A stretch of DNA of 64,000 nt, from the NCBI GenBank assembly GCA_032718475.1, contig JAUCBJ010007253.1, positions 156,974-220,973 of the forward strand. The letters run 5' to 3'. How positions within the stretch are numbered: the first letter of the stretch is position 1; the number at the start of each line of letters is the position of its first letter. Origin of the DNA: Nemertoderma westbladi. Lineage: Eukaryota > Animalia > Xenacoelomorpha. The position numbers and the translations under genes were made by a program. Under the pieces are notes generated by a model that was not told where the DNA came from, made no database searches, and saw nothing but the letters and a program-made list of their open reading frames with translations. Shown piece by piece: positions 18,010 through 56,940 of the stretch.

Positions 18010-18166
18010 CTGAAAATTATTAAGGGATGTAGTTAATTCAAATATAAATTGTTAACTATATTATAATGGTCTTTAAATAAATACAACGTCAGATGAATAT
18101 AATATACGTTTAATATAGATATAGATAAACTTTCATGGATTTATGTAACATATCGTCGGCTTTTAC

Positions 18167-19467: not shown

Positions 19468-19764
19468 AATACTTTAAAGTTTATTACAGGCGGCTAATAA
19501 ATTAGTAACTTTCATCAAATACACACAAGAAATGGTACACTGGAACAAAATTTCAAGTTTTTACTTTGATTAATTAAATCAACACAATAAATGTACAAAC
19601 AACTGCTAATATAAAATATTTAAATTACACCACTAATTAGAATAATTATTAACTTAGATAATCTTGAAACTAAAATATTAATACGTTTCCAATTTTATAC
19701 TACTCACAAAGAAATCAAGAAATTCATGAAGCTTTAAAACCGGGGTATCAGGTAGCTAACTAAT

Positions 19765-22205
19765 ACTCAGTACCTCGAAAATATAGTACCGTAGTACCTG
19801 GTGCCGCGGCACTCAGTACTACCGTAGTACCTGGTGCCTCGGCACTCAGTACTACCGCAGTACCTGGTGCCGCGGCACTCAGTACTACCGTAGTACCTGG
19901 TTTCGCGACACTCAGTACTACCGCAGTACCTGGTGCCGCGGCACTCAGTACTACCGCAGTAACTGGTGCCGCGGCACTCAGTACTACCGTAGTACCTGGT
20001 GCCGCGGCACTCAGTACTACCGTAGTACCTGGTTTCGCGGCACTCAGTACTACCGTAGTATGTGGTGCCGCGGCACTCAGTACTACCGTAGTACCTGGTG
20101 CCGCGGCACTCAGTACTACCGCAGTACCTGGTGCCTCGGCACTCAGTACTACCGTAGTACCTGGTGCCTCGGCACTCAGTACTACCGTAGTACCTGGTGC
20201 CTCGGCACTCAGTACTACCGTAGTACCCGGTGCCTTGGCACTCAGTACTACCGTAGTACCTGGTGCCTCGGCACTCAGTACTACCACAGTACCTGGTGCC
20301 GCGGCACTCAGTACTACCATTGTACCTGGTTTCGCGACACTCAGTACTACCGCAGTAACTGGTGCCGCGGCACTCAGTACTACCGTAGTACCTGGTGCCT
20401 TGGCACTCAGTACTACCGTAATACCTGGTGCCTCGGCACTCAGTACTACCATTGTACCTGGTTTCGCGGCACTCAGTACTACCGTAGTACCTGGTGCCTC
20501 GGCACTCAGTACTACCGTAGTACCTGGTGCCGCGGCACTCAGTACTACCGTGGTACCTGGTGCCGCGGCACTCAGTACTACCGTAGTACCTGGTTTCGCG
20601 ACACTCAGTACTACCGTAGTACCTGGTGCCGCGGCACTCAGTACTACCGCAGTAACTGGTGCCGCGGCACTCAGTACTACCGTAGTACCTGGTGCCGCGG
20701 CACTCAGTACTACCGTAGTACCTGGTGCCTCAGCACTCAGTACTACCGGAGTACCTGGTGCCTCGGCACTCAGTACTACCGTAGTACCCGGTGCCTTGGC
20801 ACTCAGTACTACCGTAGTACCTGGTGCCTCGGCACTCAGTACTACCATTGTACCTGGTTTCGCGGCACTCAGTACTACCGCAGTAACTGGTGCCTCGGCA
20901 CTCAGTACTACCGTAGTACCTGGTGCCTTGGCACTCAGTACTACCGTAATACCTGGGGCCTCGGCACTCAGTACTACCATTGTACCTGGTTTCGCGGCAC
21001 TCAGTACTACCGTAGTACCTGGTGCCTCGGCACTCAGTACTACCGTAGTACCTGTTGCCGCGGCACTCAGTACTACCGTGGTACCTGGTGCCGCGGCACT
21101 CAGTACTACCGTAGTACCTGGTTTCGCGACACTCAGTACTACCGCAGTACCTGGTGCCGCGGCACTCAGTACTACCGCAGTAACTTGTGCCGCGGCACTC
21201 AGTACTACCGTAGTACCTGGTGCCGCGGCACTCAGTACTACCGTAGTACCTGGTGCCTCGGCACTCAGTACTACCGTAGTACCTGGTGCCTCGGCACTCA
21301 GTACTACCGTAGTACCTGGTGCCTTGGCACTCAGTACTACCGTAGTACCTGGTGCCTTGGCACTCAGTACTACCATTGTACCTGGTTTCGCGGCACTCAG
21401 TACTACCGTAGTACCTGGTGCCGCGGCACTCAGTACTACCGCAGTAACTGGTGCCGCGGCACTCAGTACTACCGTAGTACCTGGTGCCGCGGCACTCAGT
21501 ACTACCGTAGTACCTGGTGACTCGGCACTCAGTAATACCGTAGTACCTGGTGCCGCGGCACTCAGTACTACCGTGGTACCTGGTGCCGCGGCACTCAGTA
21601 CTACCGTAGTACCCGGTTTCGCGGCACTCAGTACTACCGTAGTACCTGGTGTCGCGGCACTCAGTACTACCGTAGTACCTGGTGCCTCGGCACTCAGTAC
21701 TACCGTAGTACCTGGTGCCGCGGCACTCAGTACTACTGTGGTACCTGGTGCCGCGGCACTCAGTACTACCGTAGTACCTGGTGTCGCGGCACTCAGTACT
21801 ACCGTAGTACCTGGTTCCGCGGCACTCAGTACTACCGTAGTACCTGGTGCCGCGGCACTCAGTACTACCGTAGTACCGGGTGCCGCGGCACTCAGTACTA
21901 CCGTAGTACCTGGTTCCGCGGCACTCAGTACTACCGTAGTACCTGGTGCCTCGGCACTCAGTACTACCGTAGTACCTGGTGCCTCGGCACTCAGTACTAC
22001 CGTAGTACCTGGTGCCGCGGCACTCAGTACTACCGTAGTACCTGGTGCCGCGGCACTCAGTACTACCGTAGTACCTGGTGTCGCGGCACTCAGTACTACC
22101 GTAGTACCTGGTTCCGCGGCACTCAGTACAACCGTCGTACCTGGTGCCTCTACAGTAGTACCTGGTACTACTGTAGTATTATCCGCCTCGGCAACTGGTA
22201 CTAAC
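19765..22205. repeat. 33-bp GC-rich quasi-palindromic minisatellite, about 73 copies
   Basis: Unit GCGGCACTCAGTACTACCGTAGTACCTGGTGCC. Confidence 0.98.
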
Positions 22206-24353
22206 TAGCTTCATCCCATTTATACCTTCGTATACTACGGTAGTATCTGGTGCCTACTGTAGGCACTTAGTATTCGGTATTACATGATGCCGAGTCTGAG
22301 TAGAACTGAGTATGGATATATCCAATATATCCAACTATATAACCTAATCCAATATTATATGTATAACTGCTTCAGCTTTGTTGTTGACATTGACCTTAAA
22401 GTAAGTTGTATAAGCATATTGAAATAAAAGCATTTAACTAAATAATACTGTTACAAATTTATCCAAATTCTTGAAATTAGTTTATTAGTTTTTAAACATT
22501 GGTATTAGATAGTTTTAATACTCATAAATTATGATCCCTTATAATAGTTGTACAACATCACTTGTACAAGTCATCTTAACATATGGCATCTCAATAAAAT
22601 GCAAAACTTCTACCAAACTTAAGGGCGGTATATTCTGAACACCCGTGCCTTAGGGCCGGTCACCATGGTAAAATGGAACAACGTGAGAGAGAGAACATTT
22701 AATGCAGTTTAATTGAGTAATGAGTGCAGTAATAGTTATTGGTAGATGACATTAACAACATTACACTAGAATTATCTATATACGTTTATTTATTCTACTT
22801 TTGAACATATAAATAATGTTTAATATTGATGTCTCTATCTATCTTAAGGGTAATAAAAAAAATACAATAAATCGTTAGTTTATTATTATTATTTTTTTCA
22901 CTGGAATTCTGACGTACAAGATTCATGAATTTAATTAACTAATTAACTATTAATGCGTTACATAATTTAAAACTACAAAATAATATGATTTGTAAATAAA
23001 AAAAAGTTGTTGGTTATTGTTGTACGTACACTGTTGTTAGTAGCGTTAAAAGACCGCGTTACTGCGTTTCTCACCGTTATCTTATACAGTTTAGGCCTAC
23101 AACAGTGTGCAGTCATTCCTGGTGGCAGAAGATAATTATCCTGGTTGTTGGTGTCATTAGTTGTCATTAGTTGTTGGTTGCCGTTTAAAATTATGTTGAT
23201 CGCAGTCGTATAAAAGCATCTGTCATTATCTAGCGTAAATTGCCTTTAATTACATTGCCAAACTACATAGATGCCTTAGTTTGTGTTGCTTTTAATGCTA
23301 ATAATACTGCCCTATTACCAAATGCGTACATTTAAGGCTACCGATAATAAATGAAGCAAGCGAGTTAATAATCTATTAGATACATCACCGCGAACCAACC
23401 CTTCATCAAATCTACAGTATAACAGAACATTATCGCGGCGTATATCACATAGTGGCCGGATGTTTGGGAAACATTCAGTTTCTATGTAATTTTGAAATAT
23501 TCACTTTTGTACCACAAGCTGGTATTTTTTATATAAGTTTCAGTTTGCCATTTCTCAGTAGTGTATTTGGTTGAATATAAATGGTAGTAAATTCATTTTT
23601 ATTTTAATATAATAATTGAATGAAATTTTTTATGAAACAATCATTTTTCAATAATTGAATTATTTGACCTACATTTATGGTGTCTATTACACTTTGCACG
23701 TCACCATGTATATATTTTTTATATTTTTAACTCTCAATATTTAAATGTCATTATATAAATTCAACATTACTGAATGAACGTACATTATGGAGCTTGGTAT
23801 ACCAATTTATATCACATATATTACGGAATAAAAAAGATCACTGCGTAATTTATCATAACAAGTCCGGTTATCAGTTTAATACTTGGAATATTAGTTACCA
23901 CTTATTAGCAGACTGTACGGGAACCGCTCATTTTCTATATACAATTTTTATGCATTTTTAAAATTTCTAAAAATCTGATGCGATTTAAAAAAATCGCTAA
24001 AATTTTCCATAAATTCTGAGAGGATGTGGGAAATTTTCTAATATTAAGTGCAAATCTTTACTTCTTTTATGATCTCTTATAATCGCTTTTATTAAAATTG
24101 AGAAATTCTACCAAAAATGTACATTTTACCCGCATTTTTCCATCTGCTATAGCGCTTCGCTATGTTAGTTGGCCCTATTGTAAGTAGCTATTAACATAAG
24201 AATTATCTGGTACTCGTGTATTTATTTGTTCTCACTCATTACGATCATTCATTTAACAGACCAATCGGACGGTAATTTTTAATTAGCGTCCTTAATTATT
24301 AATGAATAAGGCCTCTGATTCCTTCTTTAGATAAGGCCAATAGTTAATTAAAC

Positions 24354-25210
24354 ATGGGTATTTTATTGAATTATTTATTGTTGTGGTTTCTATGCCTACT
24401 GGCTCCCTATTTTCCGGGAATCTTGGCCGGATCATCAGCTGACCCTATCCGTCATCAGTATTGCATCATCGGTGCCGGGCCAGGGGGTCTCCAGATGGGA
24501 TATTTCCTGGAAAAATCTCAACGCGACTACATTATATTGGAAAGAAACTCAATAAGTGGTTCTTATTTCGAAACTTTTCCGAGACATCGCACTTTGATTT
24601 CTATAAATAAAAAGTTCACCGGACAAACAAACAAGATGTTCAACGAACGCCACGATTGGAATAGTTTACTATCAGACGATGAATCGATGCTTTTCACTCA
24701 TTACTCAGACGAAATGTTCCCACACGCTGATCTCATGGTTAAATATCTAAAGGATTTCGCCGTTAAATTCGATTTAAATATTCGATACAATACAGACATT
24801 GTGAGTGTGAACCGTGGGAAATCATATATTACTAAACTTATTACACTAGAAAGCGCAGACAGAGATATGTTTATTTGCGATATTCTGTTGGTTTCTACTG
24901 GTTGGTCAAAACCCAACAACGATATCGGTAACCAAGGAAACAGTTTATTAATCGGCTACGAAGAAATGTCATTAAACGTTTCTGAATATCGGGACAAAGC
25001 GGTTCTAATTCTGGGAGCCGGAAACAGCGGATTCGAGACTGCCAATCACCTACGTTCCGAAGTCGCCTTCATTCACATGTCAGCCCAGAACGACGTGAGA
25101 TTCTCTGGTCTTACGGGGTATCCTAGCGACCTGAGATCGCGGAACGCAGAGTTTATTGATCTGTTTCAGTTGAAGTCGTTGTCCGGCGTTGAAACTATAC
25201 CGATAGCAAA
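24354..25210 (+). CDS. FOXRED2: FOXRED2-like gene B, exon 1
   Basis: Signal-peptide-like start and the same FAD/NAD(P)H-binding motifs as gene A. Donor AA|GTTCGT chosen because its phase 2 fits the acceptor at 28400. Confidence 0.88.
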
Positions 25211-25242
25211 GTTCGTAAGATTGCATCTTTATATAAACAATA

Positions 25243-28165
25243 GTGGCCTTACACTGTACAGTACAGTAGGGTGTAGGCCTAAACTGTACAGTACAGTAGG
25301 ATGTAGGCCTACACTGTACAGTACAGTAGGATGTAGGCCTACACTGTACAGTACAGTAGGATGTAGGCCCACAATGTACAGTACAGTAGGATGTAGGCCT
25401 ACACTGTACAGTACAGTAGGATGTAGGCCTACACTGTACGTGTACAGTACATTAGGATGTAGGCCTACACTGTACAGTACATTAGGATGTAGGCCTACAC
25501 TGTACAGTACAGTAAGATGTAGGCCTACACTGTACAGTACAGTAGGATGTAGGCCTACACTGTACAGTACAGTAGGATATAGGCCCACAATGTACAGTAC
25601 AGTAGGATGTAGGCCTACACTGTACAGTAGGATGTATGCCTACACTGTACAGTACAGTAGGATGTAGGCTTACACTGTACAGTACAGTAGGATGTAGGCC
25701 CACAATTTACAGTACAGTAGGATGTAGGCCTACACCGTACAGAACAGTAGGATGTAGGCCTATACTGTACAGTGCAGTAGGATGTAGGCCTACACTGTAC
25801 AGTACAGTAAGATGTAGGCCTAAACTGTACAGTACAGTAGGATGTAGGCCTACACTGTACAGTAGGATGTAGGCCTACACTGTACAGTACAGTAGGATGT
25901 AGGCCCACAATGTACAGTACAGTAGGATGTAGGCCTACACTGTACATTACAGTAGCATGTAGGCCTACACTGTACAGTACAGTAGGATGCAGGCCTACAC
26001 TGTACAGTACAGTAGGATGTAGGCCTACACTGTACAGTACAGTAGGATGTGGGCCTAAACTGTACAGTACAGTAGGATGTAGGCCTACACTGTACAGTAG
26101 GATGTAGGCCTACACTGTACAGTACAGTAGGATGTAGGCCCACAATGTACAGTTAGGATGTAGGCCTACACTGTACAATACAGTAGGATGTAGGCCTACA
26201 CTGTACAATACAGTAGGATGTAGGCCTACACTGTACAGTACAGTAGGATGTAGGTCTAAACTGTACAGTACAGTAGGATGTAGGCCTACACTGTACAGTA
26301 CAGTAGGATGTAGGCCTACACTATACATTACAGTAGGATGTAGGCCTACACTGTACAGTACAGTAGGATGTAGGCCTAAACTGTACAGTACAGTATGATG
26401 TAGGCCTACACTGTACAGTAGGATGTAGGCCTACACTGTATAGTACAGTAGGATGTAGGCCTACACTGTACAGTACAGTAGGATGTAGGCCTACACTGTA
26501 CAGTAGGATGTAGGCCTACACTGTACAGTACAGTAGGTTGTAGGAATACACTGTACAGTACATTAGGATGTAGGCCTACACTGTACAGTACAGTAGGATG
26601 TAGGCCTACACTGTACAGTAGGATGTAGGCCTACACTGTACAGTACAGTAGGATGTAGGCCTACTCTGTACAGTACAGTACAGTAGGATGTAGGCCTACA
26701 CTGTACATTAGGATGTACGCCTACACTGTACAGTACAGTAGGTTGTAGGCCTACACTCTACAGTACAGTAGGCCTACACTGTACAGTACAGTAGGCCTAC
26801 ACTGTACAATACAGTAGGATGTAGGCCTACACTGTACAGTACAGTAGGGTGTTGGCCTACACAGTACAGTAGGATGTAGACCTACACTGTACAGTACAGT
26901 AGGATATAGGCCTACACTGTACAGTATAGTAGGATGTAGGCCTACACTGTAAAGTACAGTAGGATGTAGGCCTACACTGTACAGTACAGTAGGATGTAGG
27001 CCTACACTGTACAGTATAGTAGGATGTAGGCCTACACTGTAAAGTACAGTAGGATGTAGGCCTACACTGTACAGTACAGTAGGTTGTAGGCCTACACTGT
27101 ACAGTACAGTAGGATGTAGGCCTACACTGTACAGTACATTAGGATGTAGGCCTACACTTTACAGTACAGTAGGATGTAGGCCTAAACTGTACAGTACAGT
27201 AGGATGTAGGCCTACACTGTACAGTATAGTAGGATGTAGGCCTACACTGTAAAGTACAGTAGGATGTAGGCCTACACTGTACAGTACAGTAGGTTGTAGG
27301 CCTACACTGTACAGTACAGTAGGATGTAGGCCTACACTGCACAGTACATTAGGATGTAGGCCTACACTTTACAGTACAGTAGGATGTAGGCCTAAACTGT
27401 ACAGTACAGTAGGATGTAGGCCTACACTGTACAGTATAGTAGGATGTAGGCCTACACTGTAAAGTACAGTAGGATGTAGGCCTACACTGTACAGTACAGT
27501 AGGTTGTAGGCCTACACTGTACAGTACAGTAGGATGTAGGCCTACACTGTACAGTACATTAGGATGTAGGCCTACACTTTACAGTACAGTAGGATGTAGG
27601 CCTACACTGTACAGTACAGTAGGATGTAGGCCTACACTGTACAGTACAGTAGGATGTAGGCCTACACTGTACAGTATAGTAGGATGTAGGCCTACACTGT
27701 ACAGCACAGTAGGTTGTAGGCCTACACTATACAGTACAGTAGGATGTAGGCCTACACTGTACAGTACATTAGGATGTAGACCTACACTGTACAGTACAGT
27801 AGGATGTAGGCCTACACTGTACAGTACAGTAGGATGTAGGCCTACACTGTACAGTACAGTAGGATGTAGGCCTACACTGTACAGTACAGTAGGATGTAGG
27901 CCTACACTGTACAGTACAGTAGGATGTAGGCCTACACTGTACAGTACAGTAGGATGTAGGCCTACACTGTACAGTACAGTAGGATGTAGGCCTACACTGT
28001 ACAGTACAGTAGGATGTAGGCCTACACTGTACAGTACAGTAGGATGTAGGCCTACACTGTACAGTACAGTAGGATGTAGGCCTACACTGTACAGTACAGT
28101 AGGATGTAGGCCTACACTGTACAGTACAGTAGGATGTAAGCCTACGCTGTACAGTACAGTAGGAT
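25243..28165. repeat. 30-bp palindrome-rich minisatellite, about 97 copies, intronic
   Basis: Unit TGTAGGCCTACACTGTACAGTACAGTAGGA; 25-bp variants lack one ACAGT. Confidence 0.98.
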
Positions 28166-31659: not shown

Positions 31660-31956
31660 TGTAGCTACGCTGAGAGTCGTCTCTTTAGCGTCCCACTTTA
31701 TAACATTATAATATTATAGCAAAATATAAGAATAGGTTTTATATTAGTGAGTTATATTGTCAATATTATGTTCAGACAATCAGAAGCCTGACAGCCTAAA
31801 GCAGTAGGCCTAAGTGCTACAGTATTGCACTGTATACTGAAAGTATATTCTCTAGTTGGGGCGAGCCATTCCGTGGGCGAGCCAACTAGTGAGTTATATT
31901 GAGCCAAGGGTCTATCAGTATCTTTTGTGTGCCCTTGTCCATGGTAGTCCGCTACA
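31660..31956 (-). repeat. Gypsy 3' LTR
   Basis: TGTAGC...GCTACA; adjacent PPT GGGGGGGTAG on the minus strand. Confidence 0.95.
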
Positions 31957-31965
31957 CTACCCCCC

Positions 31966-33052
31966 CTAGTGATAGATCCAAGGTGATTGATTTCCCGAGT
32001 AGTACGCCGGCGGTTGTGAAATGCGACCAGAGCGAGTTTTAGCGCAGGGCCGCGGTTGTGCGTTGTGTGGACACGGTGGGGTCTGGTTAGCGGCAGGTTT
32101 AGGTGTGGTCGGTTTGGGTACAGTTACAGCTGGAGCGGGATTGGGCGGATCGTCGAGGAATGCCGGTTTCAGTCGGTCTACTGAGACGTTGGTGTTGCGG
32201 CCGTTTACAGACAGGGAGAAATATTTGTCGGCCCGTTCTAGAACCTTAAAAGGTCCGTCGTACTGACACTGCAGGGGGCTCTTGTGGGCGTCGTGTCGGA
32301 CAAAAACGAATTCCGTCTGCAGCAGGTCGGCGGGGATGTGTGTCCGACGGTGTCCGTGGCGGGTGGTCGGGGTAGCACGGAGGCGGCTCATGGTCTGCTG
32401 GAGGCTGGTGATAAACTCGCTGGGATGGGCATGACAATCGTTCGTTGGGTCGGGGAGGAAAAATTCACTGGGAAAGCGGATCGTAGTCCCGTAGAGGAGT
32501 TCGGCCGGTGTGCAGCCAAGGTCTTCCTTCGGGGTGTTTCGGATTCCTAAGAGGACGAGGGGAAGTTCGTCCACCCAGTTCGCGCCAGTCAGCCGAGCTT
32601 TAAGGGACGCCTTAAGCTGTCTGTGGAAACGTTCCACAATTCCGTTAGACTGGGGGTGATAGGCGGTGGTGTGGTGTGATTGTGAGCCAAGCAACACGTT
32701 GAGGGAAGCCCACAGTTCGGATGTGAACTGGGCGCCGCGGTCGGATGTTATGTCGGCTGGAACTCCGTAGTGGGCCACCCAATGAGCGAGGAGTGCGCGG
32801 GCGCGGGATACGGCGGTGGCGTCGGCCATGGGGACAGCCTCGGGCCACCGGGTGAACCTGTCTATGATGGTGAAAAGATAAGTTGCGCCTTGGGAGGGGG
32901 GGGGGGGGGGGGGGACCCACGATGTCGACGTGGATCTTCTCGAAACGGCGATTCGGAGTTTGAAATGTCTCCAAGGGGGCCGATATGTGGCGTTGAGTTT
33001 TAGCTCGTTGACAACCGAGGCACTCCTTTGCCCACTTCCCGATGTCGCGGTG
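31966..33052 (-). pseudogene. Gypsy integrase of the left unit, frameshifted and cut off from RT by the BEL insertion
   Basis: Motifs [39 protein letters not shown] and TRSGR. Frameshift at a G19 run. Confidence 0.92.
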
Positions 33053-34281
33053 TGTAAAAGCTTTTGTGGGATAACTGATTCGTTTGCCTTGCCAACCAGT
33101 TCCCCCCCTGTCGCTAGAAATACTCAAAAGGGGATCTATAGTTAAAATAGTGTAAGCTACCAGCTTATTGGCTGATTTGCGGTATGCAGGTATCTGGGCT
33201 CTGTTTAATCGTCCAACTAGCCTAAGAGGGTTGCGTCATAGCCCTGTTTTTGTATCTCCCAATAGAATTTGAGTTATCCTGGATTTTAACCAATCCTGAG
33301 CTACTGAACTGAAATTTTCCTATCTCACTGCTCATCCTCTGTGTTGAACGGGAGCTTCGTGGAATAAGTGTAGTTGGTATTCTCGTAGTCACGAGTTTTT
33401 CAAAGCCACGAAAGAACGGCTTTATAGTGTTTTGTGCTTTTCTGCTTTTTAGCTCAACACTAGTAGGTTTAATTATAAGGACATATATCCTTTAACTAAT
33501 GACTGATCTAATCATACCTAACGACTTACGGACTAACAACACTCTGTGAATATCACTCTGCAAACACTGAAACATTGCAAACTCATAACAATCAGTGTTC
33601 AGTTGTTGTTTTATACTGCTATTTGCTGTCGGTTATTCATTATATTTGTGGATGAATTATTATATTTGGAATAACGAGAAACAACCCCGAAACCCAATAT
33701 TCTTGATATACCGAAGGTAAGAGAGAAAGGTTACAGATAAACGATTGTGACTTATGTTAAAGTGGTTTGAAGTGAATCTAATGTTATTTGATAGACCCTA
33801 CACGAGTCAGCCTGTGTTCCTTTTATATGTGACTAAAATCAGTGAAGATCGGCAGATTAGTGTGCAGTATTGTGCAGCATTGTGTATGCGTGAGTCTGTT
33901 AAAGAAGCATTTCCTAAAGAATGCGCCATATATGTTAATTATAACTAAACCATATCGTTGTGAGTAGTTTAAGTCATAACTCTGTTTATATAGATAGAGC
34001 GCCACGTCCTAAAGGAACTGTTAATATTCCCCGAAGGTGAATAATATTGTCAGAGATTATATAATACTGTCAGTCGAATAATACATTAGGCTTACATAGC
34101 AATAAGATTAAACCGTCGAACTCAATCTCCCGGGTATAACCAGCGGGTGAATGATCGCGCACGGATTGGTTTCGACTAGTGTAGTGAATCAAATACTTGT
34201 CGTAGGCAGAAAAGCGATTTAATATCTAGAAGACATCATAATTTGGCGGGTTAAACTGCCAAAGGTCTGAAAGCGCGAACA
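33053..34281 (+). repeat. BEL copy 1 5' LTR
   Basis: TGTAAAAG...GCGAACA; no difference from 44596-45824 noticed by eye. Confidence 0.95.
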
Positions 34282-34293
34282 TTAAAGGATATA
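34282..34293 (+). promoter_or_regulatory. non-tRNA primer-binding site complementary to the element's own LTR (33484-33495)
   Basis: TTAAAGGATATA is the exact reverse complement of TATATCCTTTAA; no TGG. Confidence 0.75.
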
Positions 34294-34581
34294 GCTTCTT
34301 TATTGCAGTAAGCAATAAAGTTGAAAGTACCGGTCAACCGGTAAACCTGAACGGTACATCTGTAGGTCAGTAGGCCCAACTGCAAGAACCGGTACTTCCG
34401 TATAAGTACAGCAGTATTATTCGATTTTGATAGTTGTATACCGGTAGGCCTTAATAATTAATCAGGGACTGCAGCCCTGGTTTTTTATTGAGATTTTTAC
34501 TTATCTCTGTCAAGTTTTATTTGTTTGTAGGCCAGTATTGAACAGAAGGCGTGTAAACCTGATCAGATTGTACAGACAATT

Positions 34582-35140
34582 TGTAGGCTGAGCTGTTGTC
34601 TGATTGCTGTTAGGTCTGAACGGATTGCAGTGTGTGTAGAGCAACTGTCCGGTTAAGTACGGTTAGGAAGTAGGGGCAGCGAATGCGGTAAGGTAAACCC
34701 CCAGCTAAAGAATAAGTCGTACTACTGGGTTAGAACGCATACTACCTAATCATTCCGGAGTCTGCATGTCCTGTAGTTTATTTAGGCTTGAGAGTAGTCT
34801 GCCATCGTTTAGTCTGTACTTTGTTTGTGTAAGTCTGTACAGGTAGCGTATAATATTATTTGGATAATTTGTAGGCTGGATAATTGTCTGGCTGTTATCA
34901 GGTCTGAACGGATTGTAGTGTGTGTAGAGCACCTGTCCGATTGAGTACGGTTAGGAAGTAGGGGCAGCGAACGCTGTAAGGTAAACCCCCAGCTAAAGAA
35001 TAAGTCGTACTACTGGGTTAGAACGCATACTGCCTAATCATTTCGGAGTCTGCATATACCGTAGTTTGTTTAGGCTTGATAGTAGTCTGTCGGTATTTGG
35101 TCTGCATTTTGTTTGAGTAGTTTGTACGCGTAGCGTAATA
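34582..35140 (+). repeat. 288-bp direct duplication in the BEL 5' leader
   Basis: TGTAGGCTG at 34582 and 34870; the same duplication is at 57218 and 57506 in copy 2. Confidence 0.9.
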
Positions 35141-36461
35141 TTTATTATTCAGAGTTTATGCGATTATTCGCAACCTTCATATTCCCCAAGTTTGTTCCTA
35201 CAGTAATTGTGTTTGTTATACATACCGCTATAGTTAAATTAACCCCGGTACTACACGGGCTGCTTGGCGTAGGTAAAGACTGGTGATTTTGTGCACCGGT
35301 TACTCCAGCAGATGCCGTGGTTCTTTTAGCTGTTCAAGTATATTTAACTACTGATTATCTGTTGTACAAGTACTCGTACCTAATTTAGGGTTTAGTGTAC
35401 AGTGCTTTCCGAAAGTAATTATTGTAGGCATTATATTTGTGTTGTAAAGTGGTTGATAGGCACCTTCGATTAGCTCTATTAGCTTCTAGGTAGGAACACT
35501 CCGTGATACATAACGTAGAACCTATAGCGATACGGCCATAGGTCGTCAGGCGGTGGTATTTTCCTATCTAGACAACGCAGTGTATTTACTACTACTTATT
35601 ATTTTCAAATACCGTAGTACCCTGTTCGTTGTAATAGCCAGATTCTAACCCTTTGTTAGGCTGGTTTGTAGACTTCTTGTAAAATTACCCTAAAAAATTC
35701 GTATTTTGTGTTTTTTTGTAAATTTTTGTGTTTATTTAGAGATTGTAATCTCAACCCGAATTGTACGTAATTTGTAGTATTAAGTAACTTAGGTAAATTA
35801 GAATTATTTGTTTTAGTGTCCTATAAGTAACACTTCACTGAAAGCGTACCGCTTTGTGCAGTGATTACCCCCAGAAATAATAACATTTATTTCAACATTG
35901 AAAAACCCAGTAAAACGGGTATATATATATTATAAATCAAATCTAACGATTTATAAATAGTAGGCCTACCATACAACCATTAGGTCTCAATATCAGTTGG
36001 ACTACTGCTCAAATAACGGTAATAAAGTAAGTAAAGTAACAAAGTAACCCTAAAGTACAGAAATTCAATTATTTAAAATAATTGATATACCGGTATTTAC
36101 GATAGGCCTATTATCTTTATTTCTGTAAATTTAGGCTGAAATTATACCGGTACTTGTAATTAATTCTAGTTCAGAATTATATATACTACAAACTGTAAGC
36201 TGTATACCGGTATTCCCGATAGGCCTATTATATATTTATATATATTTGTGCTAAAATTATACCGGTATTCTGAGATAAACCTAGTCTGTAATACTACTTA
36301 TATATAATATAAGCATACCGGTATTCTAATATATTATCTATATATCACTCTACATTGAGTAGCAGTATCGGTAGTTAATTACTAGGCTAGTAGTTAATAC
36401 TGAATTACTAGACTTGCTTAGACTGTAATATAGCAGTAGGCATTCAACTGTATATACAAAT

Positions 36462-39400
36462 ATGTCTGATACTAAGCAGAACCTGTCAGACAGTCTATTA
36501 GATGTAACTATCTGCGACTCGGATAGAGGTGTAGAACCCTCTAGTCGTAAGTCCAGTTCACCTCCCACTGTGAGGAAGGTCATCCCTCCAGTAGTAATAA
36601 CAGAACCTAGGCTAGTCCAACATCGTAGGTCTATCATAGGCACCCGAGCTCAGGTCAAGCGGGACCAAGAAGCAGCGGAACAGCAACAACCCGCGAGTCA
36701 AGAACTTATTACTCAGCGGCCCAGCAGCTCCAGTAGTGAGGATACTGTAGAGCTGACACCCGAGCGCGGAGCAGAGATGACGGATGCGGTTTATACGGAT
36801 CCCCTTCTCATCCTTCCTGCAGCCGTACTCACTAGGTTATTGATCGCGGTGGAAGAACACCAGATCGATTGGGCGAGAAGTCAACGACCAACTAGAGATA
36901 GTTATGCGGGATACACGAGTGAAGAACTGAAGTCTATTGTCGAGTCACAATGGAACTTCCCCGGACCCGGACTCCCGTTTGATTTATCAGAAGCTGCCTG
37001 GGAAGACATACACCGGATGGGAGTAGCCAAGGAAACCATCGATCCAGCTGTATGGAAGAGGTCCGCAGCCGGATACGCACAAGGATTCTTCAGCTCTATG
37101 GAGCGAGTAGAAAAACAACTGTTTCAACAACCTCAAGGACCTCAAGAGCAGGGATCGCTGCTTTATCAAGTTAGAGAAAGAGTTCTGCGAATTAGGCTAA
37201 TCTTATCCGCCTTTGAGGAGGCTTCTAAAAGAAGACAAGACACGTCGTTGCAAGTTGCCGTGAAGACTTGGTTTCAACGAGTGAGATGCCAGGTTCAAGG
37301 AGCAGCTCAGTGGAAAGCTCAGTTGGAGGAGCGCTCAACCCATGGAGAATCAACCGACGCTACTTTTTCCCAAGTGGAAAGTGAAGCGACGGCAGAGAAA
37401 CCACATAAGAAGGATGCCATTGACATCTATCTGTCAGACTATCAGCGCTTTGTAGGAGACGCAGAGTTGAGGAGAAGGTTAGAGGGACTTAGCCCTAATA
37501 GCGAAGGAGCCAAACTTGTGTTGGATGCAATTGATGTAGATAGGTTAGCGGCGAACCAAGCTAAATTCGATGAACAACTCCGCATCGCTAGAGAAAGGGA
37601 AGAACAAGTAAAGAAAAAACGTATAGAAGACAGAAAGGCAGCGGCAGTAGCAGCAGCAGTGGCATCTGCAGAGGCTGAAAGAAAAACGGCAGCGGCAGAG
37701 GCAAAAGCGGCAGCGGCAGAGGCAGCGGCAGAGGCAAAGGCAGCAGCCGAAGCTGAAAGAAAAACGGCAGCGGCAGAGGCAAAAGCGGCAGCGGCAGCGG
37801 CAGAGGCAAAGGCAGCAGCCGAAGCGGAAAGAAAAACGGCAGCGGCAGAGGCAAAAGCGGCAGCGGCAGAGGCAGCGGCAGAGGCAAAGGCAGCAGCCGA
37901 AGCGGAAAGAAAGGTGGCGGAGGCAGTGGTAGAAGCAGAACGGAGAGCGGCTGAAGAAACCAACCAATTAGAATTGGAAAACATTCAAGAGAATCAAGAC
38001 TGCATAAACAAACAGTTAACAGCTAGTAATATGCAGATGATGAATCGATCTACTCCCAAAAGACAGGGATATACATCATCTGAGGAAGGCGATACCACCG
38101 ATACGGAAGGCAAAGGAAATAGATCTTGTCTAAGCAGACGTAAAAGAACGTTCCACCGTCAAAAATTGCCTGATTTGCCTCCAGCTGTTAGAAGGCAACT
38201 AAATAGCACCAATTTAGGTAGTACAGAACCCACAGACCAAATAATTAAAATCGAAAGACTCCCTACTATAGTAGATGAGCCTGAAATAATTAGGCCTGTT
38301 CTTGAAATCACCCCTACGGTGATAGACACACCTGTGCTCCCTGAAATAACCGCTAAATTCCCTCTGCATAGCACTAAGCTACCTGTGCCCCGTAGAACTG
38401 CCCAGGAGACAGTTCAGGTCCTGTACCCCGAGCGAAATATTCATAATTTGTCGCCCGTTGTCCCTCGTCCGCCCGCTACATCGTTGGCGACTCCCGCTTC
38501 GGCGGTCGAATGGGTGGACGAGAGACGGCGGGGGATGGATATTCTGCTCGGGCAGATGCAGGAGACTGTCCAGCAGTTTAAGGGCACGGTAAGGGAAAGT
38601 AAACTAGAGTTGCAAGAAATGCAGCAAAGTATCGCGCTAGAGCGCGATAAATTAGTAAATACCCAAAGGGGTATACCACCACCCTCTGTAACAATGTGTC
38701 AACCCGTTAGGTCTGAAGTATCTCATGCGCAAGGTGTGGAGCCTACACGCATCTATACTGCTAGCGAAGTAGAAACTCCTATAGTGAACCCTATTAAGGG
38801 TAATTATAGACCTGTTGATAATGATATTCCCTATAGACCGGATCATAATCCAAGAAATTTATATACCGATAACTCGATATTAAATAACACGATGGCCCAA
38901 GAAAGTTTTACGCGTCAAATGGCTAGAACCGAAGCCCGGCAAGCGGTAAAGGTTGGAGAGATCGTCAAGTTCAATGGAGATGAGATGAAATGGTTACCTT
39001 TTAATGAATATTACAAAGATAACATACAGAACTCTGTACTGTCTAACGGAGAGAAACTTAGATTCCTCATCGAATGTTTGGAAGGACCTCCCAAGTCAAT
39101 GGCGTTAAAATTTATTGGACATCCAGATGGATTAAGACAAGTTTGGGATACACTAAACATCAGGTATGGTAATAGGACTAACATAGCTAGGTATTTATAT
39201 GCGAAATTAATGGCGCCCCGAAAGTTTCTTAGCAGCGGGATTATAGAGTTTTCCGATGAGATTCAGGAGATCTGTAGACAACTAGATTGGTTAGGTAAGT
39301 CTCATGAATACCAGAATTCTATGGTTGTAGGAGCCTTAGCATCTACTTTGCCCAAGGGTGGAGTAGGTACACGCTGGGACAAGAAGGTGTTATATATGAT

Positions 39401-41537
39401 GGAACAACAACGACGAGACCCTACCATGGCAGATTTCATGTCATTCCTGGATGGAGAAGTGAAATTGCAACTCCTCAAGCAATCCAGAGAGAAGACACCG
39501 GAAAGTAAGGTAAGTGAGAAACCCGTTTCTGGGAGAAGGGTAATACCAGTATGTTATACCGACGACGGTGAAAGCCAAACTTCTCAAGGAGAGGACAGCG
39601 GGAAAGACACTGACAGATCTTATGTCAATAAAATGCCTAAAGATCAGGTAAGTAAATCCAAGTCTCGACCCAATGACAGAAGGGAACCGGTACAAAAAAC
39701 CCCTCCTACGTCTCCTAAAAGAATTCAGATGAGAAAGCCCGAGGAAAGAACAAGTGTGCACCACACAGCACATGTTAAAGTAAGTAACATCAAGCCCAAA
39801 TGTGTGCTGTGCGACGGGCCCCACCGTTTAAATGCGTGTGATAAATTCCTGAGGAAATCACTAAAGGATAGACGTGAAGTCATGTGGGATAAGCGGTTGT
39901 GTTATAATTGCCTCAGACGAGGACACCAACGGCGAACCTGTAACTCCGACGCAAGGTGTGCAAAGTGCGGCGCAAAACATCATATCTTGTTGCACACGGA
40001 ATTCGAACGAAACAGCCTGAGTCAGGTAAGTGAGTCCGAACTACATGTCCAATTCAGTGATGTAAACGACACTGATCAATCTGAGATGGAAGGATTCTAT
40101 ACAGACGAGTTCTCCGACGAAAACGAATCCTGTTACTTGATAAATACCGCAGTGTATCGAGCACTCACATATGAAAAGGATACAGACAGCGACCTCACTC
40201 TAACTACTTCTGAACGACAACCGTCTTGGAAAAAGCCATCTTCCAATGTAGGGATTAGAGAATTTCCTGTGGTACAGGTAAGGGTTCACGGACCTAAACG
40301 GAGTTATGTAGTGAACGCCCTCCTTGACTCCGGTAGTACAGGAACATTCATCGACCAAGAGCTAGCCGAAGACATATTTGCTGGACAACCCAAGTTCCGA
40401 ACTACGCTCAACATGTCAGGCATTATGCAAGTCTGGAAATCCACAATAACAGCGGATTATTATGTAGGAGCGTTGTCCACCCCACAGGACGAACTAGGAG
40501 AACATATCATCCGGTCAGTGAAAATGGTAGCTATAAAGAACTTCGCTACTACTCAAGCAGACCTTTATAATTGGGACGAGGATGAGAGCATCCAACATCT
40601 TAACATACCTCGATTCCAGACTGATTATCCTGGAGTGCAAATACTCATCGGCCAAAACGCGCATGAGGCGCTGGAGACATTAGAGAAACGACCTGCTCAA
40701 CCGCAGCCACTACAGACCTATGCGGTAAGAACTAGAGTAGGTTGGTACCTTACTGGACCTTCCCGTAGAACGCTCAGGGAAAGACTGCTTCAAGATCGCG
40801 TCTGCCAGGTGAGTGAATGGGAAGATGATACTAGTGAGGGAGACGACCCAACTGAGGGAACACCACATTCCTCAGATAATGACAATCTTAACTCCAATGT
40901 AGATCAATGGAGATATTGCCCCAAGACGATGAATATAGTCGACATCGCTTCCGGAGGAGCAACTCCTCAAGAACTGACAGATACTATAGACCGGTTAGGT
41001 GAACCCGACTTCCTGAGTAAGGAGAATGAATGGCCTCCCCATCTTACTCCGACTGAGATTAGACCAGCCAAGGGAGCGGAGAAAGTTAAACCTAAAACCC
41101 GGACGGGTGGATCGGAGTTATTTGAACCCGGGATAGATCTGTCGGTATTACATGTTGCCAGGGACGACGCCGTGGATCTGGGCCTCCCCACCGCGAGTGG
41201 ATCCTTCATGAAGATCAGAGAGAGCGATTGGAGCTCTGGAACATCAGACGTCTCGCAGGGACTCTCACCTCTCCTGCAGAGAGCGACGGACCACTATAGC
41301 TCCTGGAATCGGCTTTGTGACGCCGTCATATACTTTGAGCGATGTTTCTATCGTCACTATTCCAGGACGAAGAGGAAACCTGGAATTGTATTCAGGATAC
41401 AGCGACTCAATCACCCAGTCGGTCGTTTGTGTTTATCGGAAGGGAATGGAGGACTCTCCGGAAACTGTGGAAGGCAAGATTCTCTTCCCACGACCACCTC
41501 CCTAATCCTTCAAACATCTAGGGACTCCATAACGTAA
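36462..41537 (+). CDS. BEL/Pao Gag-protease polyprotein fused to an RNase H C-terminal remnant; RT and integrase absent
   Basis: DUF1759-like KFNGDEMKWLPF, triple Cys-His knuckle CVLC...CYNCLRRGH...CAKCGAKHHILLH, protease ALLDSGSTGTFI, then QWRYCPKTMNIVDIASGG and YSSWNRL. Confidence 0.92.
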   Translation: MSDTKQNLSDSLLDVTICDSDRGVEPSSRKSSSPPTVRKVIPPVVITEPRLVQHRRSIIGTRAQVKRDQEAAEQQQPASQELITQRPSSSSSEDTVELTPERGAEMTDAVYTDPLLILPAAVLTRLLIAVEEHQIDWARSQRPTRDSYAGYTSEELKSIVESQWNFPGPGLPFDLSEAAWEDIHRMGVAKETIDPAVWKRSAAGYAQGFFSSMERVEKQLFQQPQGPQEQGSLLYQVRERVLRIRLILSAFEEASKRRQDTSLQVAVKTWFQRVRCQVQGAAQWKAQLEERSTHGESTDATFSQVESEATAEKPHKKDAIDIYLSDYQRFVGDAELRRRLEGLSPNSEGAKLVLDAIDVDRLAANQAKFDEQLRIAREREEQVKKKRIEDRKAAAVAAAVASAEAERKTAAAEAKAAAAEAAAEAKAAAEAERKTAAAEAKAAAAAAEAKAAAEAERKTAAAEAKAAAAEAAAEAKAAAEAERKVAEAVVEAERRAAEETNQLELENIQENQDCINKQLTASNMQMMNRSTPKRQGYTSSEEGDTTDTEGKGNRSCLSRRKRTFHRQKLPDLPPAVRRQLNSTNLGSTEPTDQIIKIERLPTIVDEPEIIRPVLEITPTVIDTPVLPEITAKFPLHSTKLPVPRRTAQETVQVLYPERNIHNLSPVVPRPPATSLATPASAVEWVDERRRGMDILLGQMQETVQQFKGTVRESKLELQEMQQSIALERDKLVNTQRGIPPPSVTMCQPVRSEVSHAQGVEPTRIYTASEVETPIVNPIKGNYRPVDNDIPYRPDHNPRNLYTDNSILNNTMAQESFTRQMARTEARQAVKVGEIVKFNGDEMKWLPFNEYYKDNIQNSVLSNGEKLRFLIECLEGPPKSMALKFIGHPDGLRQVWDTLNIRYGNRTNIARYLYAKLMAPRKFLSSGIIEFSDEIQEICRQLDWLGKSHEYQNSMVVGALASTLPKGGVGTRWDKKVLYMMEQQRRDPTMADFMSFLDGEVKLQLLKQSREKTPESKVSEKPVSGRRVIPVCYTDDGESQTSQGEDSGKDTDRSYVNKMPKDQVSKSKSRPNDRREPVQKTPPTSPKRIQMRKPEERTSVHHTAHVKVSNIKPKCVLCDGPHRLNACDKFLRKSLKDRREVMWDKRLCYNCLRRGHQRRTCNSDARCAKCGAKHHILLHTEFERNSLSQVSESELHVQFSDVNDTDQSEMEGFYTDEFSDENESCYLINTAVYRALTYEKDTDSDLTLTTSERQPSWKKPSSNVGIREFPVVQVRVHGPKRSYVVNALLDSGSTGTFIDQELAEDIFAGQPKFRTTLNMSGIMQVWKSTITADYYVGALSTPQDELGEHIIRSVKMVAIKNFATTQADLYNWDEDESIQHLNIPRFQTDYPGVQILIGQNAHEALETLEKRPAQPQPLQTYAVRTRVGWYLTGPSRRTLRERLLQDRVCQVSEWEDDTSEGDDPTEGTPHSSDNDNLNSNVDQWRYCPKTMNIVDIASGGATPQELTDTIDRLGEPDFLSKENEWPPHLTPTEIRPAKGAEKVKPKTRTGGSELFEPGIDLSVLHVARDDAVDLGLPTASGSFMKIRESDWSSGTSDVSQGLSPLLQRATDHYSSWNRLCDAVIYFERCFYRHYSRTKRKPGIVFRIQRLNHPVGRLCLSEGNGGLSGNCGRQDSLPTTTSLILQTSRDSIT

Positions 41538-44500
41538 CAACATATGGAGTGGGTGTGTGACTCTATTATTTTATATTATTTTATTATTTTTATATTTATG
41601 TATGTATTACTATGTAATTTTATTATAATCGTTTTATTTAATTTAGTAGAATATTATTTAGCGATTATTTAGTAGAATAGTGCAATATATTCGTGTTTAT
41701 TACGTACGTAATTAATTATATTATATTTAGTACGACGGCGAAGAAATAATTAATTTTTTCTCTTTCCTTACTGTCCGTATTATATTATAAATACGTAACT
41801 ACAGTAAGATGAAATGTCCGTACTTATTAAAGTACAATAAAGCCACTACTATATTAAAGTATTATTGGTAGGCAGAGTATTAGGAATGCAAAGTTCAGAT
41901 CCTCGTGTCTCGGCTAAACCAAGCTCTGGGTAGACCTTGGAAACGACTTGCCTCTTCACACTGACATTGCTTCGTGCGATATTGCTCTCATACCGTATAT
42001 TAAATAATACATATAGTAGCGTGATGTCCCTTTAACAGTAGCGTATAACGCAAAATAAATCTGTTAAACCCTTTGACCATCTGTAATTCTAGTCGATTAA
42101 GATATCGTGGCACCCACCGATATACTTGAAAGACAAATTATAGAATCAGTGGTTAACGTCCCCAGACAAGTTCTGGAATAAATCGGTGCCCATCTCAAAT
42201 ATTAATTAGTTAATATTTACAAATCAAATAAGTCAAAATCTGTAAAATTCAGATCCTTCAACAATTCTAGTCAATTAAGATATCGTAGCATTTACCGATA
42301 TTCTTAAAGAGACAATTTTCTTAGAATTAAGGATCTTGTGTCCCTAAACATGTTCTAGAATCAAAATATGTCTATTTAATTATCAAATAATAAAATTTCA
42401 GGGAATAAATTTAAATTCATGTCTTTTAATGAATTTAATAAATTGCCATTTTACGCAATTTATAACATTCCCAAAATTCCATTAATTAATAGATCAAGGG
42501 AGCGGAGATTTATATTATTATGCGTATGCGTGTACGAAAGTCTCCCAAACATAGTCAATAGCCGATAAAATTCATAAAGTCATGTATAAACAGGACATTG
42601 ACTATTAAAGAATTACTATTAAATAACATCCCAGATCTGTATGCATTGGAATTACTCTAATTCTACCGCTAGCTTTACATAATGTCACCATAGCAACAAC
42701 CACGCTAGAATTAGAATTGAGTTAAAGGAACAATAGAAAGCTTGTCCCATTGAATAGCATAGGGAATAAATAGCGCACTGCTAGTATCCAAGGATACATA
42801 ACAATACAGTGACATTCTGGAAGGCATTGACTAACGGACAAATGGCCCGAATGTGTGTAGTTGTGACAAGTTGTGCGGTATTTGTGAGTTTATAGGTGAA
42901 TGTTACTGCTAAAGTGTGTTTACAGTAGCTAGTCGCAATCGTAAAAGTAACCTAACTCTCCAAGGAAAACCTGACGTACATCTAAGCCTTTGGGACGGAC
43001 AGTGGAGTGACTTGTGCCGGTTGTCGTTGTCGTTGTGCGGCTACGTCGTTGGCGAAAGTACAGCGGAGACGACACATCGGCGCTGAGGATCTCATACTGT
43101 CCGGGGGTTGATTGGGGTAGGCAGCGACGCCCGCTCGCCTAAATATAAACTCATTATAATATGGATAAACTCATATATAGCAGATATGACGGAGTTGATA
43201 GAAGATGGTCTTGGTATCGGGGAGCGATATACTCTACTTTTACAAGCGTTTGTTGATAGCTTAATACGCGGCGACGTTAGTCCAACTGCTGCGGAGGACG
43301 ATGGTCGTTATATCGAACCGCCAATGTCCCAAGAGCAGCTCGCGCGCGAGTTGGACTATAGAAAATTCGCCGCTCGATATACGCAGCGTAATGGTACGTA
43401 TATGGTCTTCTTAACTACTGGTCATCCTATCGCTCTACATAATACGGACTATGTCGACTATATATCCTGCCCAGCGGAGTCGGAACCATAAACTGAAATT
43501 CGAGTGCGAAATTTCTATTCGAAATTGACTCGAAAGAAAAGACACTAAAGAAACAAATAAACGCGGTAACTCCAACGTATGTTTGGAATTCTTGACAGAA
43601 GCATTGTAACAACAAATAAATATCACCCGCGTTTCCCCTACCAGACGTGCGTCTTTGGTATTATTACGGTAAATGCCCTAGACCCAGCCAATAAACGGAA
43701 AGACATAAACATCCACGGAAACGTTGTGTTAAACACAGTTGTGTTCGTTATATTTACTCGAGTTTTGAGCAAAACTTGTTTGACGTATCACCTATGCTCA
43801 CTCGGTTCTAACGATCCTGGAGTAAACCTATGATCAAAGTCCCGGAATACTCGGTCAAACCTCCTCATTCCTCAGTTGGACCTCAGACCTGCGATCCTGG
43901 TGGTGTCGCGGATCCTCGCGGACTGTATTCACTGTTCAAAGATCTAGTGCTACCCTAACAATTAATCGGTAACACTCCGACAGTGATTTCTACCTAGCCG
44001 CCCATCTTACCTAGCCGGATTATGACGCGGACACCTAATATCACTATCCATCCGTATGGTCGTCCCGTTTAACGCGATACAACCCTTCATCAAGGTGAAG
44101 GAGAGCGTTGTACGAAACGAGTTAAACGCTATTCTATAAAGATCAAAAAAGAAATCTGCGTTTGTTCAGATAAACGTAAGTTATAACAGTAAGTCCAATC
44201 GATAAACGAATTGGCCTTATCTCAGTTCGATTGAGAAATCTCGAATCTCAAAGAAGATATCAAGCTTAGAAAACCCTATTCTTTGCGAGAGTTTTGTACG
44301 AACGTATCCCATGACAAGCGGAGGAAAATCAGCTCGAGGAGAAGCATATCGAAATGGACGAGACACCGACCGTAAACCCAAACCTTCTAATGCAATCATA
44401 TTGCACCCTTCGCCTAGGAGCTACAGCCCTCCTCATAAAGTGGCTCGCCCCAAGGAGAAAAGGACTCTCGCTAGCCTCAAGAAACTGCGTAAACGCCGTC

Positions 44501-44595
44501 CACGCAAGAAAGACTAACTGTTTAGAGTATTTTTATATTTTAGAAACTGTGATTTTGTATATTTTATAGACTTAAATCCCATTTTCTGGGAGCGG

Positions 44596-45824
44596 TGTAA
44601 AAGCTTTTGTGGGATAACTGATTCGTTTGCCTTGCCAACCAGTTCCCCCCCTGTCGCTAGAAATACTCAAAAGGGGATCTATAGTTAAAATAGTGTAAGC
44701 TACCAGCTTATTGGCTGATTTGCGGTATGCAGGTATCTGGGCTCTGTTTAATCGTCCAACTAGCCTAAGAGGGTTGCGTCATAGCCCTGTTTTTGTATCT
44801 CCCAATAGAATTTGAGTTATCCTGGATTTTAACCAATCCTGAGCTACTGAACTGAAATTTTCCTATCTCACTGCTCATCCTCTGTGTTGAACGGGAGCTT
44901 CGTGGAATAAGTGTAGTTGGTATTCTCGTAGTCACGAGTTTTTCAAAGCCACGAAAGAACGGCTTTATAGTGTTTTGTGCTTTTCTGCTTTTTAGCTCAA
45001 CACTAGTAGGTTTAATTATAAGGACATATATCCTTTAACTAATGACTGATCTAATCATACCTAACGACTTACGGACTAACAACACTCTGTGAATATCACT
45101 CTGCAAACACTGAAACATTGCAAACTCATAACAATCAGTGTTCAGTTGTTGTTTTATACTGCTATTTGCTGTCGGTTATTCATTATATTTGTGGATGAAT
45201 TATTATATTTGGAATAACGAGAAACAACCCCGAAACCCAATATTCTTGATATACCGAAGGTAAGAGAGAAAGGTTACAGATAAACGATTGTGACTTATGT
45301 TAAAGTGGTTTGAAGTGAATCTAATGTTATTTGATAGACCCTACACGAGTCAGCCTGTGTTCCTTTTATATGTGACTAAAATCAGTGAAGATCGGCAGAT
45401 TAGTGTGCAGTATTGTGCAGCATTGTGTATGCGTGAGTCTGTTAAAGAAGCATTTCCTAAAGAATGCGCCATATATGTTAATTATAACTAAACCATATCG
45501 TTGTGAGTAGTTTAAGTCATAACTCTGTTTATATAGATAGAGCGCCACGTCCTAAAGGAACTGTTAATATTCCCCGAAGGTGAATAATATTGTCAGAGAT
45601 TATATAATACTGTCAGTCGAATAATACATTAGGCTTACATAGCAATAAGATTAAACCGTCGAACTCAATCTCCCGGGTATAACCAGCGGGTGAATGATCG
45701 CGCACGGATTGGTTTCGACTAGTGTAGTGAATCAAATACTTGTCGTAGGCAGAAAAGCGATTTAATATCTAGAAGACATCATAATTTGGCGGGTTAAACT
45801 GCCAAAGGTCTGAAAGCGCGAACA
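44596..45824 (+). repeat. BEL copy 1 3' LTR
   Basis: Direct repeat of 33053-34281. Confidence 0.95.
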
Positions 45825-48682: not shown

Positions 48683-48979
48683 TGTAGGTACGCTGAGAGT
48701 CGTCTCTTTAGCGTCCCACTTTATAACATTATAATATTATAGCAAAATATAAGAATAGGTTTTATATTAGTGAGTTATATTGTCAATATTATGTTCAGAC
48801 AATCAGAAGCCTGACAGCCTAAAGCAGTAGGCCTAAGTGCTACAGTATTGCACTGTATACTGAAAGTATATTCTCTAGTTGGGGCGAGCCATTCCGTGGG
48901 CGAGCCAACTAGTGAGTTATATTGAGCCAAGGGTCTATCAGTATCTTTTGTGTGCCCTTGTCCATGGTAGTCCGCTACA
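48683..48979 (-). repeat. Gypsy shared middle LTR
   Basis: PBS on its left and PPT on its right. Confidence 0.95.
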
Positions 48980-52928: not shown

Positions 52929-53225
52929 TGTAGGTACGCTGAGAGTCGTCTCTTTAGCGTCCCACTTTATAACATTATAATATTATAGCAAAATATAAGA
53001 ATAGGTTTTATATTAGTGAGTTATATTGTCAATATTATGTTCAGACAATCAGAAGCCTGACAGCCTAAAGCAGTAGGCCTAAGTGCTACAGTATTGCACT
53101 GTATACTGAAAGTATATTCTCTAGTTGGGGCGAGCCATTCCGTGGGCGAGCCAACTAGTGAGTTATATTGAGCCAAGGGTCTATCAGTATCTTTTGTGTG
53201 CCCTTGTCCATGGTAGTCCGCTACA
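52929..53225 (-). repeat. Gypsy 5' LTR
   Basis: 297-bp repeat with adjacent PBS; TSD ACCC follows on the plus strand. Confidence 0.95.
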
Positions 53226-56925: not shown

Positions 56926-56940
56926 ATAACGGATATATGT
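56926..56940 (+). promoter_or_regulatory. non-tRNA primer-binding site complementary to the element's own LTR (56170-56184)
   Basis: ATAACGGATATATGT is the exact reverse complement of ACATATATCCGTTAT. Confidence 0.78.

Follow-up and report, generated by a model that had tools for sequence, protein, structure and literature searches.

Complementarity between the primer-binding site and the LTR suggests self-priming in a BEL/Pao retrotransposon family

Self-priming has been shown for Tf1-type elements of the Ty3/Gypsy superfamily. According to the part of PMC7175516 available to us, the Tf1 RNA's first 11 bases anneal to its primer-binding site (PBS), with RNase H cleaving between bases 11 and 12; excerpts of PMC4600332 and PMC5341516 describe Tj1 and Tf2 as primed like Tf1. 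A PBS complementary to the own 5' LTR is the common feature of Tf1 and Tf2 (S. pombe), Tj1 (S. japonicus) and the Tf1/sushi and Tcn1 groups of Ty3/Gypsy. A plant survey, as far as its accessible sections go, predicts self-priming only for Tcn1/Tf1-sushi and for the TAR lineage of Copia, using as criterion a complementarity of PBS and LTR that covers at least 10 bp and starts 0-5 bp past the LTR (PMC6317226). Hairpin or self-priming has also been considered as possibly ancestral, in a model that, in the portion available, leaves out Bel/Pao (PMC3601003).

For Belpaoviridae, the ICTV gives a PBS of 18 nt that is complementary to host tRNA-Arg or tRNA-Gly, and calls the replication of the family poorly understood (PMC8742986). 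This agrees with the first-pass annotation of the locus described here, which stated that BEL/Pao elements are regarded as tRNA-primed. A report of a self-primed BEL/Pao element was not found in open-access papers, the scope of our search, with Repbase, GyDB and subscription journals outside it. Term searches in PMC3118150, PMC554778 and PMC6238403 returned neither PBS nor tRNA, and the accessible parts of PMC8220671, PMC5443660, PMC3286476 and bioRxiv 2021.11.23.469668 contain nothing on BEL priming. In the ICTV description, the choice of primer (host tRNA) characterises the family as a whole. Self-priming has been demonstrated for Tf1-type Gypsy elements, and for one lineage of plant Copia it is a prediction; a self-primed BEL/Pao element would add a third superfamily and, if true, bear on whether self-priming is ancestral. 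Such elements would be independent of host tRNA and might escape PBS-directed silencing by tRNA fragments, and annotation tools built to require a tRNA site would overlook them or set their boundaries wrongly.

Two BEL/Pao copies and their primer-binding sites

The window, a stretch of 64,000 nucleotides of animal DNA, contains two copies of the element, both on the forward strand. Copy 1 spans 33053-45824 and is flanked by a 5-bp TSD (CGGTG, 33048-33052, with the right copy at 45825-45829). Its 5' LTR (33053-34281) is 1229 bp long, has TG...CA ends and is 100% identical to the 3' LTR (44596-45824), which is directly adjoined by a purine-rich tract (44588-44595). Its single ORF (1702 aa, 36429-41537) encodes a Gag with DUF1759 as well as three Cys-His motifs and the protease motif DSGS; matches to RT, RNase H or integrase are absent, and the ORF diverges from the copy 2 alignment at about 40883. 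Copy 2 begins with an LTR of 1185 bp (55741-56925), also TG...CA, and its ORF (59073-63998) is open at the window end; it encodes a DUF1759 Gag, a protease and the start of a BEL/Pao-type Pol, leaving the window at the start of RT/Pol. PF05380 and/or PF03564 were detected in 54 of the 55 homologs of the copy 2 protease-RT region. By their proteins both copies are filed as BEL/Pao (Belpaoviridae), with homologs that are BEL/Pao and not the chromovirus Pol of the Ty3/Gypsy Tf1/sushi lineage. In agreement with the ICTV description are the LTRs of about 1.2 kb with TG...CA ends, the 5-bp TSD, the Gag with DUF1759 and Cys-His motifs, the protease and the PF05380 Pol homologs, and a purine tract is present as well. 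In a quick tree of Gag, PR and the start of RT (54 rows, after dropping rows with <250 matched residues, including L036 and L047) the window element sits on a branch of 3.65 and in no supported group.

Between the ORF stop of copy 1 and its 3' LTR lie about 3 kb (41538-44587) with no frame >134 codons. The leader is 2.2 kb long in both copies (34282-36461; 56926-59105) and contains a 288-bp tandem duplication. It also holds conserved acceptors at 35659 and 35739 and a donor at 36027; together with a donor in the LTR at 33717, these sites might permit a spliced mRNA without the PBS.

The claim that neither BEL copy has a TGG PBS was borne out: no TGG occurs within 185 nt of either LTR, the first one in the leader following at 197 nt (copy 1) and 186 nt (copy 2). 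Unlike the ICTV Belpaoviridae, the window copies lack an 18-nt site complementary to tRNA-Arg or tRNA-Gly. The Gypsy neighbour in the same window has a normal primer site, CA-T-TGG, and ARAGORN found no tRNA genes in the window. We take the missing tRNA-type PBS to mean that the present description of Belpaoviridae is incomplete.

In both copies the PBS position directly follows the terminal CA of the LTR and is complementary to the same LTR over at least 10 nt. The pairings noted earlier were reproduced in full. In copy 1, the 12 nt at 33484-33495, the candidate self-primer, have their exact reverse complement at 34282-34293, and five more pairs past a 2x2 loop extend the pairing to 33477-33495 (duplexfold -15.5 kcal/mol). 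In copy 2, the 15 nt at 56170-56184 have theirs at 56926-56940, and with one G-U counted the pairing comprises 18 pairs and includes 56167-56184 (-24.7 kcal/mol). The partner occupies LTR positions 432-443 in copy 1 and 430-444 in copy 2, at a distance of 787 and 742 nt from the PBS, and a second copy of it is present in the 3' LTR of copy 1 (45027-45038). Dinucleotide shuffles of the LTR matched the observed length in 1/5000 (copy 1) and 0/5000 (copy 2) cases, and the 1500 control start positions downstream of each LTR yielded just one unrelated 11-mer per copy.

Inside the 12-nt duplex the two copies differ at PBS positions 1 (T/A) and 5 (A/C), and both changes are mirrored in the LTR partner, as the first-pass annotation had noted; when 24 nt on the partner side are compared in reverse-complement orientation, no other position differs. 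When the copies are swapped, the PBS pairs with the LTR of the other copy for only 5 nt from position 1. The final 41 LTR bases, just before the PBS, are identical between the copies. PBS positions 13, 14 and 19 also differ and have no mirror in the partner, which suggests a functional duplex of perhaps about 12 nt. From the identical LTRs and the TSD we conclude that copy 1 recently moved with this PBS.

Two described lineages are closest in layout. Like the Tf1-type elements, the window element has no tRNA site and a duplex of about 11-12 nt, which a U5 stem may also adjoin here; unlike them, it has BEL/Pao Gag and Pol and a loop of 742-787 nt. The complementarity of both copies also corresponds to that by which the plant Ty1/Copia TAR lineage (Houba, Osr-1) was recognised; this lineage differs in belonging to Copia, in its plant hosts and, in the accessible part of the survey, in being a prediction only.

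The LTR and distant relatives

The partner lies at the edge of a conserved block. Between the copies, 36 of the 39 bases of 33457-33495 are identical, including a TATAAG at 33474-33479, and a hypervariable segment (33496-33610) begins at the 3' end of the partner. The previously described divergence just 3' of the partner was confirmed, with 41% identity (gaps counted) vs 92% in the block and 94% in the remaining LTR. Upstream of the block, a conserved pyrimidine tract ending in AG (33430-33452, also at 56141 in copy 2) resembles a splice acceptor or a U-rich element; no conserved donor precedes it. A splice-donor-like AAG/GTAAGA (33717-33722, also at 56364) is conserved, as a predicted site only. 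The predicted long-range U5 stem (34155-34278) pairs 34155-34160 with 34273-34278 and closes beside the PBS; it is also found in copy 2, with pair probabilities of 0.92-1.00 in both copies and without compensatory changes. Downstream of the partner, TATATA is conserved at 33987 and 34058; a conserved poly(A) signal is missing, as is, after 33495, a conserved GU-rich element, this segment being the most variable of the LTR. We assume that a CCAAT at 33259 and a TCAT(T/C)C motif at 33332 point to a transcription start near 33334.

Logan contigs of four public runs, mapped on 33300-34420, point to a family with many copies. Coverage is deep in the block that ends at the partner and not over the 70 bases that follow: in run X1 the summed depth of three successive bins falls from 385,356 (33452-33489) through 36,523 to 131 (33528-33565). 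Among the joints listed, 8 of 12 start at 33494-33497, the 3' end of the partner. An insertion of one A, converting TATAAG to TATAAAG, is common in contigs of runs X4 and X5.

Two further observations concern the LTR. Segment 33984-34059, which holds the TATATA motifs, is the most deeply covered in all four runs and includes a hairpin motif, CCGAAGGT, that recurs at 33712; it could be a second promoter for RNAs without the self-primer, as an excerpt of PMC5341516 describes for Tf2. Identity between the copies is 81% upstream of the partner (33053-33456 vs 55741-56145) and 94.5% downstream, with 90-92% in the body, a contrast that may reflect either faster change of U3 or recombination at the strand-transfer point.

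For comparison with other BEL/Pao elements, an alignment of 31 homologs was used to retrieve 61 BEL/Pao loci from metagenome contigs, of which 21 were scored, 21 were excluded for short flanks and 19 had no assignable LTR end or were duplicates; L008, with a 77% repeat pair, was left unscored. The LTR end was fixed by the own repeat pair in six loci (L009, L011, L022, L030, L036 and L043). In all six, 10-13 nt of the PBS, at an offset of 2-3, pair with the own LTR, and none has a TGG at the PBS. The partner is contiguous in L009, while the other five pair across a predicted GT-AG junction. None of 500 internal control windows reached the score in any of the six relatives, and the cross matrix of PBS against LTR is specific along its diagonal, except that L022, L036 and L043 share a PBS core.

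With 15 more loci, whose ends were assigned after seeing matches, so that they form a selected set and not a frequency, 20 of 21 reach 10-14 nt with about 13 different cores. The 21 loci contain near-duplicates (L022/L034 and L036/L039), and the LTR end is one base off in L013, L025, L055 and L060, which shifts the offset and leaves the match length unaffected. The exception, L055, has a perfect match of only 6 nt (bulged). Four of the 20 matching loci have contiguous partners. The LTRs of the other 16 (L003, L011, L013, L018, L020, L022, L023, L025, L030, L034, L036, L039, L043, L044, L047 and L060) match the PBS only across a predicted GT-AG junction, over 11-14 nt, with a core GTTCGAATTT common to several. 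In the LTRs of the window copies a partner of this kind was rejected, since none of the 111 and 56 candidate junctions gave at least 6 nt; here the partner is contiguous.

Loops are 45-290 nt long in the relatives vs 742-787 nt in the window copies, and the best identity of the window element to any relative is 30%. Since it is distant from all of them, the relatives reflect the behaviour of the superfamily and not the ancestry of this family. Protein scans found no relatives of the element in viral contigs, and a 21-nt LTR-end pattern had no match in metagenome and viral contigs. An independent evolution of self-priming, as suggested by the first-pass annotation, is so far not supported, given that the signature occurs in many relatives, that the window element lies on a long unplaced branch and that self-priming has been argued to be possibly ancestral (PMC3601003).

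Source of the primer

Complementarity of PBS and partner, covariation and a conservation boundary at the last base of the partner are present at this locus, and we consider self-priming of this BEL/Pao family likely. The proposal of self-priming gained support from the related elements, since all six independently bounded relatives pair the PBS with their own LTR. As to the source of the primer, we are somewhat inclined towards the 5' part of the genomic RNA, pairing with the PBS and being cut after 33495. With Tf1 as the model for cut, enzyme and primer source, the RNA's 5' part would fold back to the PBS, forming the duplex beside the predicted U5 stem, and a cut after 33495, probably by the element's own RNase H, would free a 3'-OH. 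Minus-strand DNA would be made from 34281 back to 33496 and then jump to the 3' LTR; first-strand transfer at 33496 could account for the rearrangement scar at 33494-33497. Plus-strand synthesis would recopy the primer into the PBS, and such rewriting would produce covariation without selection on both sites. Copy 1, having no Pol, presumably moved in trans. Two lengths are conceivable for the primer, a short one with its start near 33477-33484 and a longer, capped one starting near 33334.

This 5' origin is favoured by the exact complementarity, the shuffle counts and the mirrored changes, by the missing TGG next to a Gypsy element that has one, by the drop in depth in X1 together with the joints at 33494-33497, and by the six bounded relatives and the Tf1 precedent (part of PMC7175516). 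In the relatives, an AATAAA or ATTAAA lies downstream of the partner in 17 of the 21 scored loci, a position that would include the partner in R and speaks for a 5' primer released by cutting. However, in the folding model the duplex of copy 1 reaches a probability of 0.97-0.99 only for RNAs that start at or after 33477, falling to ~0.10 for a start at 33453 and to about 0.02 or less for 33334; the duplex of copy 2 has 1.0 for a start at 56142 and 0.43 for 56024. The TATAAG 10 nt upstream of the partner, together with the TATATA motifs, could also set the start downstream of it, the LTR has no conserved poly(A) signal after the partner, and the loop exceeds those of the relatives. Moreover, the covariation within the family rests on two linked PBS/partner pairs with three unmirrored positions, and the relatives are distant, 15 of their loci having been chosen after matches were seen.

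The geometry of Tf1, in which the first mRNA bases are the primer, had been taken over in the first-pass annotation and is so far not supported: TATAAG is only 10 nt away from the partner, and in L030, L036 and L057, spliced or contiguous, a clear TATA box 68-168 nt upstream of the partner would put it inside the transcript. L013 has a TATA-like match 38 nt before the donor. In Tf1 the partner consists of the first bases of the RNA, a position that is putative for the window element, and unlike Tf1, most relatives found here build the partner across a predicted splice junction. It is possible, though not the more probable case, that much of BEL/Pao is self-primed in a manner unlike Tf1, with an internal or 3'-terminal primer that in most relatives would be made by splicing within the LTR, and in the window element possibly with a processed 3' end at 45038 that loops back to the PBS.

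A primer taken from the partner copy in the 3' LTR (45027-45038), through an RNA 3' end at this site or by cutting a second packaged RNA, appears less probable to us but is a serious rival; the first-pass annotation had raised an RNA 3' end here as an alternative. The RNA could end there if TATAA(A) 16 nt upstream acted as poly(A) signal, with the U-rich tract playing the part of the upstream element, and if the tail were trimmed; alternatively, the motif could be a TATA box, the partner part of U3 and a second packaged RNA the source of the cut primer. TATAAG/TATAAAG at 33474 has the distance of a TATA box to a start near 33504 and also that of a poly(A) signal to 33495, and downstream there are TATATA motifs and no conserved AATAAA. 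Processing at 33495 is at odds with the segment that follows, highly variable and with no conserved GU-rich element, and the poly(A) signals after the partner in most relatives, as well as their frequent predicted splice-junction partners, suit the 5' copy better. Removal of R would also complicate first-strand transfer. The predicted RNA ends are exact, 33495/33496 and 45038, and hence directly testable.

The duplex might instead be an RNA element with another task, such as packaging, dimerisation or a translation switch, with priming left to a host RNA or a tRNA fragment that has escaped recognition. In the folding model the partner forms a small local hairpin and so does the PBS, as in switches, and tRNA-Arg/Gly priming is what the ICTV gives for the family (PMC8742986). 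We nevertheless hold such a role to be unlikely, since in the window copies and in all six bounded relatives the duplex lies at the position of the PBS, with differing sequences that are each matched to their own LTR, since positions 1 and 5 prevent any one host RNA from matching both window variants, and since no TGG site is nearby. That chance or a one-off templated copying event without function produced the pairing seems very improbable: the window contains only two linked pairs, and both sites are AT-rich, yet the shuffles and mirrored changes speak against it, and the shared layout of the relatives, with 0/500 controls each, has largely refuted it already.

Two other ways of generating the primer end are rejected or unlikely. 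Release of the 3'-OH by the spliceosome does not fit the bases after the partner, which are CT and CA and not GT. In tRNAs, position 33 is a U; neither PBS complement has a U at this place, which makes a half-tRNA ending at position 39 an unlikely primer. An Rfam search of 33000-36500 (E up to 1) returned one chance-level match only, so that no known ribozyme would make the cut.

Neighbouring repeats

The insertion site of copy 1 is in a Gypsy element on the minus strand, within its integrase region. This element belongs to two tandem Gypsy units (31660-53225, minus strand), which share a 297-bp LTR with copies at 31660-31956, 48683-48979 and 52929-53225 that are >99.5% identical; BEL copy 1 lies in the integrase of one unit. 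The canonical Gypsy PBS reads CA-T-TGGTGACCC, which we take to resemble tRNA-Trp sites.

At the start of the window (1-16281) a 90-bp satellite is repeated in about 180 copies with an internal 43/47 split, and a second variant of 90/91 bp occurs in blocks. Two FOXRED2-like ORFs follow in inverted orientation (18163-19473, minus strand; 24348-25667, plus strand) and share 95% identity over 615 bp. In the first, 436 codons run without a stop, and identity to animal proteins is at most 48% among the matches listed. Each ORF is adjoined by a minisatellite, of 33 bp x 72 (19787-22148) and 30 bp x 99 (25245-28165), respectively, the former being open in frames on both strands.
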